IMG/VR virus record: IMGVR_UViG_3300001282_000006
Source: a virus
Taxonomy: Duplodnaviria > Heunggongvirae > Uroviricota > Caudoviricetes
Direction: 5' to 3' (one strand)
DNA: 64,000 bases
Positions 19,568 to 57,073 of this stretch are shown one piece after another. The notes beneath the pieces are model-generated. The model did not search any database, had not been told where the DNA came from, and was given only the letters and a program-made list of their open reading frames with translations. The translations under genes were made by a program, and so were the position numbers. The stretch's first letter is position 1; each line of letters begins with the position of its first letter.

Positions 19568-20302
19568 ATGAATAAGAAAAAAGTATTGATTTTTACTGGA
19601 GCAGGAGTTTCAGCTGAAAGTGGCGTTGCTACTTTTAGAACTGGTGATGATGGGCTTTGGTATAATCATAAAGTAGAAGATGTTGCCACACCTAGTGGGT
19701 GGCGTAGAGATAGAGAAAAAGTTCTTAATTTCTACAATATGCGTCGTGCTCAAATGAAAGATGTTGAGCCAAATTTGGCGCATAAAATAATTGCTGAATT
19801 AGAAAATGATTATGATGTTACTGTTGTAACTCAAAATGTTGATGATTTACACGAAAGAGCAGGCTCAACTAATATTATTCATCTACATGGTGAGTTAACA
19901 AAAGCTAGAGGCTGTATGTATGATCATAAAACATCACCATTAGACACAGTTGTTGATGTGGGATATAATCCAATTAATATTGGAGATAAATGTCCAACAA
20001 CTGGCTCTCAATTAAGACCTCATATTGTTTGGTTTGGTGAAGATTTAGATCCTGATTTTGTTGATATGGCTACTAAAGCGGCTAAAGAATGTGATGTATG
20101 TATTGTTGTTGGAACTTCAATGAAAGTTTCACCTGCTAATACAATTCCATTTTTGACTAGAGAAACTACTAAGATTTACTATGTAGATTTATCAGACCTT
20201 GATTTCTATGTACCAGAATACAGAAATGACTTATTTACTCATTACCAAGAATTGGCATCAACTGGTATGGAAAAAGTTAAAAACGATTTAAAAAATATTT
20301 AA
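19568..20302 (+). CDS. cobB: Sir2-family NAD-dependent protein deacylase.
   Basis: GAGVSAESGVATFR, TQNVDDLHERAG and a CxxC Zn module (CMYD...CPTTG). HIVWFGE motif. Confidence 0.85.
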   Translation: MNKKKVLIFTGAGVSAESGVATFRTGDDGLWYNHKVEDVATPSGWRRDREKVLNFYNMRRAQMKDVEPNLAHKIIAELENDYDVTVVTQNVDDLHERAGSTNIIHLHGELTKARGCMYDHKTSPLDTVVDVGYNPINIGDKCPTTGSQLRPHIVWFGEDLDPDFVDMATKAAKECDVCIVVGTSMKVSPANTIPFLTRETTKIYYVDLSDLDFYVPEYRNDLFTHYQELASTGMEKVKNDLKNI

Positions 20303-21461: not shown

Positions 21462-22019
21462 ATGAATTTACAAGAATTACTTAATAAATGGAATATCAAA
21501 TGTGATGTTAATACATTACTTTCAATGTGGAATGAATCTCATAGATCTTATCATACCTTAAATCACTTAAATGATGTGATTGACCAAATCAACGAAAGTA
21601 AGTCAAAATACTCTGATAAAGAATATGAGAAGTTGATGTTAACAGCTCTTTTTCACGATTGTGTTTATGACCCAATGAAAAGTGATAATGAAGAAAAGTC
21701 AGCTGACTTCTTTATGGAATGCTGTTCAGATAAATCTAATTCAGACGTTTTAGAAGTAAAACAAATGATTTTAGATACAAAGACTCACCAAGCTACAACA
21801 AACCTTTCAGAGTCTTTTAATTACTATGATATGAGTATTGTAGAAAGAGATTTCGATCAATTATTAGAATGGGAAAACGGAATTCACGAAGAGTTCAAAG
21901 CTTATGGTGAAGCTTACAAAGAAGGTAGATTGAAATTCTTAGAATCAATCTTAGATAAATATCCTCATAACACAGAAAACTTACTTAAACTAGTTGAGTG
22001 GGTTAAAACTAACTACTAA
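21462..22019 (+). CDS. HD-domain phosphohydrolase-like protein.
   Basis: H..NH...LTALFHDCVYD resembles the H...HD metal-binding motif. Confidence 0.45.
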   Translation: MNLQELLNKWNIKCDVNTLLSMWNESHRSYHTLNHLNDVIDQINESKSKYSDKEYEKLMLTALFHDCVYDPMKSDNEEKSADFFMECCSDKSNSDVLEVKQMILDTKTHQATTNLSESFNYYDMSIVERDFDQLLEWENGIHEEFKAYGEAYKEGRLKFLESILDKYPHNTENLLKLVEWVKTNY

Positions 22020-22500: not shown

Positions 22501-22530
22501 AAAAAAACCCACTCTAGAGTGGGTTTTTAA
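22501..22530. terminator. Bidirectional rho-independent terminator.
   Basis: aaaaaaacccactc-taga-gtgggttttt. Confidence 0.75.
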
Positions 22531-22534
22531 TTTA

Positions 22535-23203
22535 TTAAATATTTGGATTAGGTTTGTTAGGTCTTTGATTAGGATTTACTACAGCACCTTTATTTGTCTT
22601 AGGTTCAGCAAAATATAAAGCAAAATTTGTTTCTTTATCTTCAGTACTTAATAACATATTAGGATATTTTGATTTGATAGTATCAATTAATTTATTTCCT
22701 AACTTATTTACAAATTTTACTACTTCTGGGTTTTTCTGCATATCGTATAAGTTAGCAATTTTACCAGATTCTCCAAAAATAGCATCTTTTATATGTGACC
22801 AATTTTTAGAAATATCCTGTTGATAAGTTCCAGGGTATTTTTCATAATCACCAGGTTTCTTTTCATCCATCATCTTTTTAATTATCTCTTTATTTTCAGG
22901 TGCTGTTATAAATTGATAAGCAACAGCATAAACAGGCAGAAACAAGCCAATTTGTTCAACATCTGAAAATTGATGAATTTCTACAGTACCACCTTTACCA
23001 TTCAAATATTTTGAATCTTTTGTACCAACTAAAGAATCACCACCTCTATATTTTGATTTTTCGCTATTTTCTTTTATTTCAACTTCATACCCTTCACTTT
23101 TTACAAGAGAGTATAATTGTTTAGCTATAGATTTTAATTCCAGAAAATCTTCATTAATAGATTCTGAGTCTGAGAAGTTTTCAAATAATTTAAGATGTTT
23201 CAT
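22535..23203 (-). CDS. Hypothetical protein with a CTS-like leader (MKHLKLFE|NF).
   Basis: 222-aa ORF. TTTAATATATAC motif 21 nt upstream. Confidence 0.7.
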   Translation of the reverse strand: MKHLKLFENFSDSESINEDFLELKSIAKQLYSLVKSEGYEVEIKENSEKSKYRGGDSLVGTKDSKYLNGKGGTVEIHQFSDVEQIGLFLPVYAVAYQFITAPENKEIIKKMMDEKKPGDYEKYPGTYQQDISKNWSHIKDAIFGESGKIANLYDMQKNPEVVKFVNKLGNKLIDTIKSKYPNMLLSTEDKETNFALYFAEPKTNKGAVVNPNQRPNKPNPNI

Positions 23204-23252
23204 AATTATGATTTTTTATTAATGTATATATTAAATTTAATATTCGATTTTT

Positions 23253-23915
23253 TCATTTTATATACATTGAGTTACAGAAGTCATTCCAATCCAATCTATA
23301 TCCTAACTGTGATGTGAGTTCTTTACAAACATCTAAACCAATATGTTCATGCTCAATAAATAAATGAGTAGGTAAGACATCACAGTCTTTCATACTTTCT
23401 AATATCAATGCTTCAACACCTTCAACATCTAATATAAACAAATCAACATGTTTAATATCATATTCTTCTATAAGTTGTTTAAATGTAATTACTTCAACTA
23501 TAAATTCTTGTAGTTGAACTCCCATCTTATGGAGTTGATAAAGGTGTTTTTCTACATGTTGAAATGAACCATTACTCCATCCTGGCGCTTTTGCTATATC
23601 TTCAACATTGTCGTCTCTGAATACAAATGAACCGGTTTTATTAAGTAAACCTTTATTTAGGTTAAGGAATGAATTAGGTCTGTTTTCTACTAATTTCTTA
23701 AATTTAACCGGACTCGCTTCTATATTAACGCCTTACCAACCCATAGTTTCTTCAAAAAATTTACAACATGATAAGTTAAGACCATCAGCTGCTCCGCACT
23801 CGATAAAAAAACCATCTCTTTTGTCTTTAAAGTAATTGTCGTGTAAGAACTTATCTACCGGTACTCCTCTATAGAGATAACCAGCATTTGGAACCTGTCC
23901 GTAATATTTATTCAT
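23253..23915 (-). pseudogene. FkbM-family methyltransferase interrupted by a single in-frame TAA. The stop lies at plus-strand 23733-23735, complement.
   Basis: The N-terminal fragment ...GFFIECGAADGLNLSCCKFFEETMGW* continues in frame as GVNIEASPVKFKKLVENRPNS...VDLFILDVEGVEALILE...FIEHEH. Together this matches the FkbM pattern (G.F.E.GA.DG / GW.G..IEP.P / IDLLKIDVEGAE). Confidence 0.6.
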
Positions 23916-23925
23916 GTATTATATA

Positions 23926-24648
23926 TTAATAATTCATAATTATCAACTCTGTACCCATTATAGTTATCTTAGAATCAAATTTACAAGTAGGATAAAGTTC
24001 TTCTATACCGTCGAAATAGTAGTAACTTAATAAGAACTTTCCTTTAATATTATTAAGAGTTTCCGCCAGCTCTTTATGAGTATCTTTATTAAAATCGTGA
24101 TTGATATAGTACTCTTCTTTACCCATATAAGGCGGATCTACATAAAAGAATGTTGATTCTGAATCATACATTTCAATTACTTTTTTATAATCGTAGTTGT
24201 GTATATTATTTATTTTACTTAAATGATGTTCATAAGCACGGTGCTTCATTTTAAGTATATTGAATTCACTATTATCTCTCCAAGAATCTTTACCAATTTC
24301 ATAAGGAGATGAGCAAGTTAAAACAACTAACCAATAAAGAGAAAGTAACATCTCATCTTTTTCAGTTATTATTTTTTTCAAACAACTTCGATAGTAATCT
24401 TCATCTATCTCTGTGTTCTTAAATAATTCAACAAAATTAGAATTTCGTAAATTTTTGAATAATAAATAATTTAGATTATTCTTATCATTATAGATAAAAT
24501 TAACATCCTTAAACTTAGTGAAGTCTAAGGCAAAAAAAATACCAAACATTCCGGCAAATGGTTCTACATAAGTAGAAATATTATTGGGAATATTTGGTAC
24601 TATAAAGTTCGCAAATTTAGATTTCTCGCCTAAATAAGGTATCAGCAT
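23926..24648 (-). CDS. dam: Dam-like N6-adenine DNA methyltransferase (D12 class).
   Basis: YVEPFAGMFGIFFAL (FxGxG-like) and YVDPPY catalytic motif. Confidence 0.8.
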   Translation of the reverse strand: MLIPYLGEKSKFANFIVPNIPNNISTYVEPFAGMFGIFFALDFTKFKDVNFIYNDKNNLNYLLFKNLRNSNFVELFKNTEIDEDYYRSCLKKIITEKDEMLLSLYWLVVLTCSSPYEIGKDSWRDNSEFNILKMKHRAYEHHLSKINNIHNYDYKKVIEMYDSESTFFYVDPPYMGKEEYYINHDFNKDTHKELAETLNNIKGKFLLSYYYFDGIEELYPTCKFDSKITIMGTELIIMNY

Positions 24649-24966: not shown

Positions 24967-24986
24967 AGTCCAGATTATCTGGACTT
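24967..24986. terminator. Hairpin overlapping the stop of 24975..26090, probably a terminator.
   Basis: gtccagattatctggac flanked by T/A runs. Confidence 0.4.
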
Positions 24987-26090
24987 TTTAAATTCTTTTT
25001 TATCATTAGAAATATAGAATTTATCAAAATTATAGTATTTCTTATACACTTCTTTGATTTTCTTCATATTAACTTTATCTAAAATATCATAAACTGACCA
25101 ACCCTCTGGATTGATATATTGATTAACATTCTTATATCTAAGAATCTCATCTTTAGCCATTCTTACTTTGTAGTAATCTTTAACTAAGTCAAATCTTTCT
25201 TTTGTTAAATATTTATCAGGGTTTGTAATCACCTCTTTAACAGCGTCAACTACACCATTGTAATTTTTATTAGATGTTTGAGTTGAGATAGTATTAATAC
25301 CTTGATTGTTAACTCTTGACTGATAACAATGTACATAATAAACTAATCCTTTTTTCTCTCTAATTTCTTGATAAAGTGGAGATTTTAATCCTAATGACAA
25401 CATAGCATTGATAAAGTGAACATAAGCAAAATCTTCCTCAATTATTGGAGAAAGAATAGCAATAGATGTTTTGTCTTTGAACTCATTACTTAATTCTAAA
25501 TCAACATCATTTTCACCAAACTCAATAGTTTTTGTAATATCTCTCTTAGCAAAATCAATAGTATTGTTTTTGTAAGGTTTGTTTTTAGATACGTTAATAA
25601 TCTTAGTAGGCTTAGCATATTGAAGTTCAAAGAAATTCAAACAATCCATATACTTTAGTTTTTCTAAATCTTCTTTTAATCCAATTGGATCATAATCACC
25701 AAATAATTTACGAGAAAGATTTAACATATGTGTTTGAGTTTGGTCATTGAAACAATCCATGTATTCTTCAAGTACAATGTTTCTTTCATTTTCAAATTGT
25801 TCTTTAGTAACATTGAATTCACCAAGTAAGTCCATAAACTCACCTTTCCACTTATTTACTTTTTCATCTAAGCCAGTTAGATAAAAAACAATTTCATTTG
25901 AACTTGTGTAAGCATTCCAATCAATGCCGTCTTTGTCAAAATCTTCTTGAAGATGATCAAAGTTTTTACACATTAAATGTTCCATTAAGTGAGAGATACC
26001 AAACCAACCTTTTTTCTCAAGATTAGTTGAACCTTCATATACAACGTAGAAACCAGATAATTCAGTTTCAGATTTAAGATTTATTATCAT
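24975..26090 (-). CDS. M16 (pitrilysin / insulinase) family metallopeptidase-like protein.
   Basis: Inverted zinc motif HxxEH (GISHLMEHLMCK) near the N-terminus. Confidence 0.55.
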   Translation of the reverse strand: MIINLKSETELSGFYVVYEGSTNLEKKGWFGISHLMEHLMCKNFDHLQEDFDKDGIDWNAYTSSNEIVFYLTGLDEKVNKWKGEFMDLLGEFNVTKEQFENERNIVLEEYMDCFNDQTQTHMLNLSRKLFGDYDPIGLKEDLEKLKYMDCLNFFELQYAKPTKIINVSKNKPYKNNTIDFAKRDITKTIEFGENDVDLELSNEFKDKTSIAILSPIIEEDFAYVHFINAMLSLGLKSPLYQEIREKKGLVYYVHCYQSRVNNQGINTISTQTSNKNYNGVVDAVKEVITNPDKYLTKERFDLVKDYYKVRMAKDEILRYKNVNQYINPEGWSVYDILDKVNMKKIKEVYKKYYNFDKFYISNDKKEFKKSR

Positions 26091-56376: not shown

Positions 56377-56449
56377 GATTCCGTAGCTCAATCGGTGGAG
56401 CTTCCGACTTTTAATCGGAAGGTTGTGGGTTCGAACCCCACCGGGATCA
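56377..56449 (+). tRNA. tRNA-Lys(UUU).
   Basis: GATTCCG-TA-GCTCAATCGGTGGAGC-T-TCCGA-CTTTTAA-TCGGA-AGGTT-GTGGG-TTCGAAC-CCCAC-CGGGATC-A. Confidence 0.75.
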
Positions 56450-56463
56450 CTAAAAACACAAAT

Positions 56464-56546
56464 GATCCTGTCGCTTAGCGGCTATAGCAACTGGCTTTTA
56501 ACCAGTAGATTAATTTCAACCGTGGGTTCGAGTCCCACCAGGATCA
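56464..56546 (+). tRNA. tRNA-Lys-like paralogue (UUU anticodon as read) with a 15-nt variable region.
   Basis: GATCCTG..ACTGG-CTTTTAA-CCAGT-AGATTAATTTCAACC-GTGGG-TTCGAGT-CCCAC-CAGGATC-A. Confidence 0.45.
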
Positions 56547-56555
56547 CTAAGTAAT

Positions 56556-56638
56556 GCGTCTGTCGCTTAGTGGCTATAGCAACTGGCTTTTAACCAGTAG
56601 ATTAATTTCAACCGTGGGTTCGAGTCCCACCAGACGCA
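56556..56638 (+). tRNA. Tandem near-identical copy of the previous tRNA with a different acceptor stem (GCGTCTG/CAGACGC).
   Basis: The body is identical to 56464..56546 except for one D-loop base. All seven acceptor-stem base pairs are replaced. Confidence 0.45.
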
Positions 56639-56645
56639 CAAAATT

Positions 56646-56729
56646 GATTCCGTCGCATAGCGGCGATTGCGCCAGACTCTTAATCTGATGATGAAAAGTC
56701 CACCGTGGGTTCGAGTCCCACCGGAATCA
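56646..56729 (+). tRNA. tRNA-Lys-like paralogue (CUU anticodon as read) with an expanded variable region.
   Basis: GATTCCG..CAGA-CTCTTAA-TCTG..GATGATGAAAAGTCCACC-GTGGG-TTCGAGT-CCCAC-CGGAATC-A. Confidence 0.4.
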
Positions 56730-56738
56730 CAAAAAATG

Positions 56739-56879
56739 GAGAGAGTAGCTCAGTTGGTAGAGCACGTTATTATACTCTGATAAGTATTCTCTGATTACGG
56801 TTAACGTAATTAGTAGTGATGTTAAGAGTTACTTCGGCTGTTAACCGCGTGGTCGTAGGTTCGAGTCCTGCCTCTCTCC
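56739..56879 (+). tRNA. tRNA gene interrupted by a ~65-nt insertion (putative small intron). A possible anticodon arm CGG-CTGTTAA-CCG gives GUU/Asn.
   Basis: Canonical GAGAGAG-TA-GCTCAGTTGGTAGAGC 5' part and GTAGG-TTCGAGT-CCTGC-CTCTCTC-C 3' part, separated by extra sequence containing AGAGTTACTTCG. Confidence 0.4.
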
Positions 56880-56945: not shown

Positions 56946-57073
56946 GGGGATGTAGCTCAGTGGTAGAGAAAACTATCTCTTTTGAAATTTTACCTCGTAA
57001 GAGTGTTGATTGAGAGAGTTACTTCGTATATTTTGAAATTATAAGGTCGTTGGTTCGAATCCAACCATCCCCA
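56946..57073 (+). tRNA. tRNA gene interrupted by a ~55-nt insertion related to the one in 56739..56879.
   Basis: GGGGATG-TA-GCTCAGTGGTAGAG...GTTGG-TTCGAAT-CCAAC-CATCCCC-A. The insert contains GAGAGTTACTTCG and a duplicated TTTTGAAATT. Confidence 0.4.

Follow-up and report, generated by a model that had tools for sequence, protein, structure and literature searches.

Does a lone in-frame stop codon in an environmental phage genome mark a broken gene, a mistake of assembly, or a stop that the phage reads through? The question is raised by a minus-strand locus at positions 23253–23915 of a 64,000-nucleotide stretch of phage DNA (the window, by which we mean throughout the whole stretch that was analysed), where a TAA triplet directly follows the residues FFEETMGW in the translation. 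The earlier note on this DNA had taken two short minus-strand ORFs at this place for the halves of a single FkbM-type SAM methyltransferase, and had listed a fresh nonsense mutation, a sequencing error and programmed or leaky readthrough as candidate explanations. The window has a G+C content of 30% and encodes virion structural and tail-fibre proteins, an SbcC-like nuclease, a NAD-dependent ligase and a tRNA cluster. Contigs carrying exactly both FkbM fragments of the window reach up to 170,228 bp, and the source is a large (at least 170 kb) uncultured freshwater phage. When searched by megablast and tblastn against 50,697 GenBank phage records, neither the phage DNA nor the protein of the gene returned a match. 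The features referred to below are the following.

23253–23915, minus strand: very probably inactivated FkbM-family SAM methyltransferase gene (pseudogene allele), with 220 sense codons, one internal TAA and a terminal TGA; recognized by its translation, by PF05050 and TIGR01444 and by its identity to intact proteins.
23733–23735, minus strand: premature TAA stop, in place of the CAA (Gln) found in intact alleles of this lineage; the change is a C-to-T transition at window position 23735.
23736–23915, minus strand: N-terminal 60 residues, the sole part expected to be translated, running from the leader through strand beta-1 (FFIEC) and the glycine-rich loop that binds SAM (GAADG) to helix A.
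23256–23732, minus strand: open stretch of 159 codons after the stop, from beta-2 to the C-terminus, with the same sequence in all TAA-bearing contigs.
23574–23576, minus strand: AGT (Ser) in the GWGNGSF motif, at a position that is Gly in almost every homologue; a polymorphism linked to the stop and older than it.
23892–23893, minus strand: place where 9 bp present in most alleles (codons Phe-Arg-Asp) are deleted in frame; the deletion is seen with and without the stop.
23372–23745, minus strand: 374-nt segment that is present in the window and missing from the second loss-of-function allele of other contigs (L036–L041, P0088, P0102), with AC microhomology at the junction.
23926–24648, minus strand: intact D12-class N6-adenine DNA methyltransferase (Dam-like; PF02086), 10 nt upstream of the FkbM start.
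22535–23203, minus strand: gene for a 222-aa protein, downstream of FkbM, which exchanges place with FkbM in a sister lineage.
22503–22528, minus strand: terminator-like hairpin and T-run, closing the Dam–FkbM–unk222 gene string.

Translation of the minus strand from 23915 to 23253 contains one internal stop, and the single TAA at 23733–23735 thus breaks an otherwise continuous family sequence, as had been described. The ORF list divides this sequence into 23733–23915 (60 aa) and 23253–23525 (90 aa). The latter had been regarded as the C-terminal half of the enzyme; it does belong to the C-terminal piece, but the open frame is larger, extending over 159 codons from 23732 to 23256, and the 90-aa ORF is only the portion that begins at the first ATG, 69 codons past the stop. 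No ATG, GTG or TTG is found in the first 69 codons after the stop within the frame of 23256–23732.

Joined across the stop, the product matches the Pfam FkbM domain (PF05050, Methyltransf_21) with residues 39–207 over positions 1–172 of the 173 in the profile, at 59.2 bits against a cut-off of 22.7 (E 7e-16), and the NCBIfam model TIGR01444 at 42.1 bits against a cut-off of 37.7. The PF05050 match is collinear across the stop, which agrees with the reading of the two ORFs as parts of one FkbM methyltransferase. The C-terminal part alone also matches PF05050, and a Pfam profile search with the 60-residue part alone gave no match to this domain. Judged by profile comparison, the assignment of the joined product to the FkbM family is far above chance. 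Over its full length it is 96–98% identical to intact proteins of 220–223 aa. In the source annotation the intact alleles are called 'FkbM family methyltransferase' and the 60-aa and 90-aa fragments 'hypothetical protein'.

We found 86 homologues among 5.8 billion proteins (30–96% identity), nearly all of them uninterrupted and 213–223 aa in length, or longer where extensions are present. The IECGAADG motif is invariant or near-invariant across 82 homologues, and the alignment column of the stop is occupied by Q, E, K, T, R, S or H. The stop had been placed within a conserved GW-x-G block, and this is correct: the variable column is preceded by an invariant Trp and followed by a Gly that is nearly invariant. 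All 23 of the 23 related viral loci match over the stop site as one segment, and a stop at this codon was found neither in these loci nor in the other homologues, only one haplotype group having TAA. The earlier suggestion that a naturally two-part protein should be considered if orthologues also end here is refuted by more than 80 uninterrupted orthologues. As far as titles and abstracts tell, FkbM and bacteriophages are brought together in the literature merely in passing mentions.

What would the truncated product lack? The intact allele P0001, modelled with AlphaFold on an 82-sequence alignment, reached a pLDDT of 94.4 and a pTM of 0.91. In this model, strand beta-1 (residues 39–43, FFIEC) is followed by the GAADG loop, a helix at residues 55–61 and strand beta-2 at residues 64–68, and the stop corresponds to residue 64, the first residue of the modelled beta-2. 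The top PDB matches to the model in a Foldseek search were all class I SAM-dependent methyltransferases, with TM scores of 0.42–0.45, and included fibrillarin-type 2'-O-methyltransferases, tRNA and rRNA methyltransferases, PrmA and COMT; a profile search of PDB sequences gave no match at E <= 0.01. The predicted fold is clearly that of a class I (Rossmann-like) methyltransferase, although the TM scores are modest and a specific solved relative is missing. The 60-residue product is without beta-2, the near-invariant acidic residue (Glu) after it, all later strands and the NRP, GNGSF and LDVEG motifs. Because beta-2 and the rest of the Rossmann fold are absent, the fragment should be unable to act as an enzyme, and we infer from how class I methyltransferases are generally built that it would be inactive.

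The origin of the stop can be followed in related contigs. CAA is present at this codon in L042, L047, L048, L050–L055, L001–L006 and L043–L046. Among these, L047 differs from the window at six bases over 3,330 bp (99.82% identity), three of them inside the gene (a synonymous ACG/ACT difference, CAA/TAA and GGT/AGT). In L048 the in-gene differences are reduced to CAA/TAA and GGT/AGT, and in the partial contig L042 the sole in-gene difference is the stop base itself, C in place of T. Since the nearest intact alleles have CAA, the stop is one C-to-T transition in a Gln codon, in line with the earlier remark that a single point change can produce it. The same 90% cluster contains intact proteins of 223 aa and 220 aa with Gln at the stop position. 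The gene order of the window (Dam-like, FkbM, 222-aa gene) is shared by intact 223-aa alleles on at least nine contigs, L050–L055 among them, and by intact 220-aa alleles with the 9-bp deletion in L047 and L048.

The 90-aa ORF created by the stop is present on 19 contigs in a public assembly index. Six TAA contigs, L007–L012, were compared in detail; they come from six samples that were assembled separately, with different assemblers, at JGI and in ENA. Five of them, L007–L011, of which four stem from JGI samples and one from an ENA sample, have 0 mismatches to the window and are 100% identical to it over at least 778 of 783 bp at the gene. L012 also carries TAA and has no mismatch to the window, differing by two indels. 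The 9-bp deletion accompanies TAA in the window and in L007–L011, and TAA occurs without it in L012. As all four of the four combinations of the 9-bp indel with the C/T site were observed, recombination among co-circulating genomes is indicated. TAA is fully linked with the AGT variant (7/7 TAA sequences, namely the window and L007–L012), and AGT is also found together with CAA in L042/P0100. The Gly-to-Ser variant therefore predates the stop, and for the same reason we rejected the idea that Ser in the GWGNGSF motif reflects decay after the stop. With no difference between one TAA contig and another, and only one to three from the nearest intact alleles, dN/dS past the stop is uninformative. 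The TAA contigs being identical past the stop, the allele is young and free of further decay.

The nonsense mutation is not the only lesion of this gene. A frameshifting deletion of 374 nt occurs on at least 12 contigs (including L036–L041) and on both 9-bp backgrounds (P0088, P0102), and one contig of the sister lineage, L049, has an in-frame deletion of 276 nt. In the sister lineage the gene is otherwise mostly intact (L001–L006, L043–L046), with the protein P0087 indexed in 64 blocks. Three independent knock-out lesions (nonsense, 374-nt and 276-nt deletions) hence coexist with intact alleles, two of them each on two backgrounds. Overall, knock-out alleles make up about a third of the contigs with this gene, a rough figure derived from 15 of 27 cluster members that counts contigs, not genomes; with the gene order of the window, loss-of-function contigs are about as many as intact ones. 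All allele counts are contig counts from the protein index. Exact-pattern scans of the metagenome_contigs and viral_contigs collections, with a pattern around the stop that left the codon free and with a 39-nt stretch common to all alleles, gave no match, and these collections evidently do not contain the lineage. One further candidate was examined and rejected, an insertion (mobile element or intron) lying three codons ahead of the stop, as might be read from sequences ending '...FFEETYSFIY*' and beginning 'MGWQG...' (163 aa). The former fragment stems from the 374-nt deletion, and in the 163-aa proteins the gene call is truncated at the end of the contig.

We conclude that the FkbM methyltransferase gene of the window, a dispensable accessory gene, is very probably present as a loss-of-function allele that is young and still segregating. 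On this account, a gene for a class I SAM-dependent FkbM methyltransferase gained a C-to-T change that turned a Gln codon, CAA, into TAA, and translation would end after 60 residues, leaving beta-1, the SAM loop and helix A only, an inactive fragment. The TAA allele is established in the natural phage population, where it recombines with co-circulating genomes and coexists with intact copies of the gene and with two or more deletion alleles of independent origin, and the undiverged state of the dead part past the stop makes it evolutionarily young. Among the explanations first listed, it is thus the nonsense mutation (pseudogene) that is borne out by CAA in the intact alleles, by TAA in at least six samples and by searches in which signals of recoding were not found. 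The adjective 'fresh' holds in part: the mutation is young and undecayed, but far from being private to one genome, it is established in a natural population.

The main rival to this conclusion is low-level readthrough, which we regard as improbable. Leaky or programmed reading of TAA, likeliest as Gln by a near-cognate tRNA-Gln or a suppressor tRNA, would lower the dose of the enzyme and leave a tuned-down functional gene. Several observations fit this scenario. The 159 codons past the stop are intact, as continued function would predict; the ancestral codon is Gln (CAA), and Gln is the near-cognate amino acid for UAA; the TAA allele is fairly frequent and, by recombination, occurs on two backgrounds; and the phage has a large tRNA cluster, in which one atypical tRNA has an anticodon that can be read as UUG or UGA. 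The intact codons are, however, explained equally well by youth, the TAA allele being one step away from a living CAA allele. Moreover, the stop is found in no orthologue beyond the one haplotype group. The base after the stop is G, and to our knowledge TAA-G is not a known leaky context. RNA folding of 145 nt around and after the stop gave a z-score of +0.82, with 159 of 200 shuffled sequences folding at least equally well, so that no downstream structure exceeds chance. No UUA anticodon was found among the approximately 15–17 tRNA genes in the 64-kb window of the genome of at least 170 kb; the anticodons identified are for Phe, His, Trp, Lys, Arg and Ser, possibly also for Leu and Asn, and two of the genes are atypical. 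TAA terminates 51 of the 55 long ORFs in the 64-kb window (non-overlapping, at least 100 aa), and as it ends 93% of genes, efficient ochre suppression would lengthen nearly every protein. Finally, the deletions in sister genomes speak against a retained, tuned-down enzyme. Because two deletions destroy the gene there, FkbM function is not required, and we infer that the gene is dispensable. Overall, no defining feature of programmed readthrough or of a code change was found, and the suggestion of readthrough in the earlier note finds no support in the unconserved stop, the tRNA set of the 64-kb window, the TAA-G context or the predicted RNA structure.

A second rival holds that the protein is naturally split or restarted, its parts assembling with each other, or that the 90-aa ORF yields a small functional product. 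Two ORFs are indeed called on all TAA contigs. Yet since there is no start for 69 codons, neither piece would contain residues 62–130, which span beta-2 to beta-4 and include the NRP and GNGSF motifs, and no orthologue is organised in this way, making such an arrangement very improbable.

The chance that the true genome reads CAA and that the stop is a sequencing or assembly error is close to nil. A single-base difference is the kind of change that an error could produce, but here the same base recurs in at least six contigs from six samples processed by different pipelines, and the complete linkage of TAA with AGT is not expected from errors. With the same TAA allele recurring in separate assemblies and the CAA allele assembling normally in many other samples, an artefact is excluded for practical purposes, and the earlier candidate of a sequencing error falls with it.

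Equally negligible is an alternative genetic code with TAA as a sense codon, which has in its favour the single in-frame TAA and nothing further and is in effect refuted by the 51 of 55 long ORFs that end in TAA, as the earlier note had itself judged in calling genome-wide recoding unlikely, by the lack of a suppressor tRNA in the window and by the uninterrupted state of its other genes: a scan for paired open segments of at least 50 codons split by one stop revealed no other window gene with an in-frame stop, the remaining same-strand cases being neighbouring genes (with starts 0–41 codons past the stop) or antisense noise.

The neighbour upstream of FkbM had been described as an intact Dam methylase. 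Its product scores 66.5 bits against PF02086 (cut-off 22) and 52.9 against the Dam subfamily model TIGR00571 (cut-off 114.85); the gene is therefore confirmed as an intact D12-class methyltransferase and not as a member of the Dam subfamily, and with the TIGR00571 score below cut-off 'Dam-like' is the safer name. That FkbM adjoins this gene is true in the window but not conserved across relatives: in the sister lineage a gene intervenes between the two, and in distant phages no Dam gene is present within 6 kb. As the adjacency is not conserved, no functional coupling between FkbM and the Dam-like gene is to be assumed.

The order of FkbM and the 222-aa gene is reversed in the sister lineage, as seen when L001 (9309–10672) is compared with the window (22535–23915, minus strand). 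Neighbouring proteins there are 90–99% identical, except for a small 85-aa protein at 66%. Each of the two genes travels with its own short upstream sequence, and the junctions share the motif TTAATATATA(A/C)A and an A-run before the terminator hairpin. From these sequence features, the change in gene order looks like a cassette swap by short-homology recombination. Upstream of FkbM, at 23926–23946 on the minus strand, the sequence TTGATA-17-TATAAT matches the sigma-70 consensus at 11 of 12 positions and ends 3 nt ahead of the start codon (ATG at 23915), for which a Shine-Dalgarno sequence is not apparent. Promoter-like matches in this AT-rich region numbered 15 against 17.4 +/- 4.0 in shuffled sequences, that is, without excess, and the sigma-70-like match is for this reason not used as evidence. 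Other accessory genes in the neighbourhood encode a SIR2-family protein (19568–20302, plus strand), an M16-family (insulinase-like) peptidase (24975–26090, minus strand) and a 185-aa protein (21462–22019, plus strand) that appears HD-domain-like by the look of its sequence. These three genes are kept in all related contigs.

The tRNA cluster contains several unusual genes. Three tandem tRNA-Lys genes on the plus strand (56464–56547, 56556–56639 and 56646–56730; anticodons UUU, UUU and CUU) are 84–85 nt long and have an extra arm of 14–15 nt, which is unusual for tRNA-Lys. They lie right behind a normal 74-nt tRNA-Lys(UUU) at 56377–56450, bringing Lys to four of about 16 tRNAs. The trio is 99.3–100% identical in seven other contigs that span it (an eighth starts downstream), and because of this near-identity it is not assembly noise. 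Speculatively, the extra-arm tRNAs might serve as spares or decoys against host anticodon nucleases that target tRNA-Lys. Further downstream on the plus strand, two Rfam tRNA matches at 56739–56879 and 56946–57073 score 42 and 45 bits, above the gathering score, and have internal insertions of about 68 and 56 nt, located after the D-arm or in the anticodon arm. Neither of the two was called by ARAGORN at default settings. Both insertions end with a common motif, GAGTTACTTCG, and the anticodon loops are probably CTGTTAA (GUU, Asn) and TTTGAAA or TTTTGAA (UGA or UUG). At this length the insertions are too short to be group I introns.

Is the loss of FkbM more than merely tolerated? Selection for loss, or a balanced polymorphism, appears unlikely to us, though somewhat less so than any of the rival explanations of the stop. 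If true, it could reflect a trade-off, for example between a host defence that senses the enzyme or its methylated product and a benefit of the enzyme on other hosts. In practical terms, the locus illustrates that true variation within a population, as opposed to an assembly error or recoding, can lie behind a lone in-frame stop in an environmental phage genome, and that public assemblies alone suffice to separate the three. For annotation, 23253–23915 should be entered as one FkbM-family pseudogene instead of two hypothetical proteins. The allele series (intact, nonsense, two deletions, 9-bp indel and gene-order swap) forms a small and clean set of markers which, given time-series read-level mapping, could be used to track recombination and gene loss in a phage population. 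The mechanistic importance of the nonsense allele is little.

Compared with known systems, the joined product shares with FkbM methyltransferases a SAM loop of the E-x-G-x-x-x-G type (IECGAADG) and the matches to both family profiles. The window copy differs from them by its interruption, with no uninterrupted ORF for the whole domain, and since TAA stops translation after 60 residues it would be a pseudogene of the family and not a functional member. With stop-codon recoding in phages (reassignment of TAG or TGA, phage-encoded suppressor tRNAs) and with programmed readthrough the likeness is superficial, consisting of an in-frame stop in a conserved domain of a tRNA-rich phage; here, in contrast, the codon is TAA, the main terminator, one gene is hit, no suppressor tRNA was found, the stop is unconserved and there is no stimulatory structure. 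The closest parallel lies with unitary pseudogenes, or segregating loss-of-function alleles, of 'moron'-like phage genes, which show the same one-step nonsense change beside intact alleles and likewise independent deletions and variable position and neighbours. There is no essential difference from these. Nonsense alleles of accessory phage genes are ordinary and already known, and the present locus offers a textbook case at population resolution.
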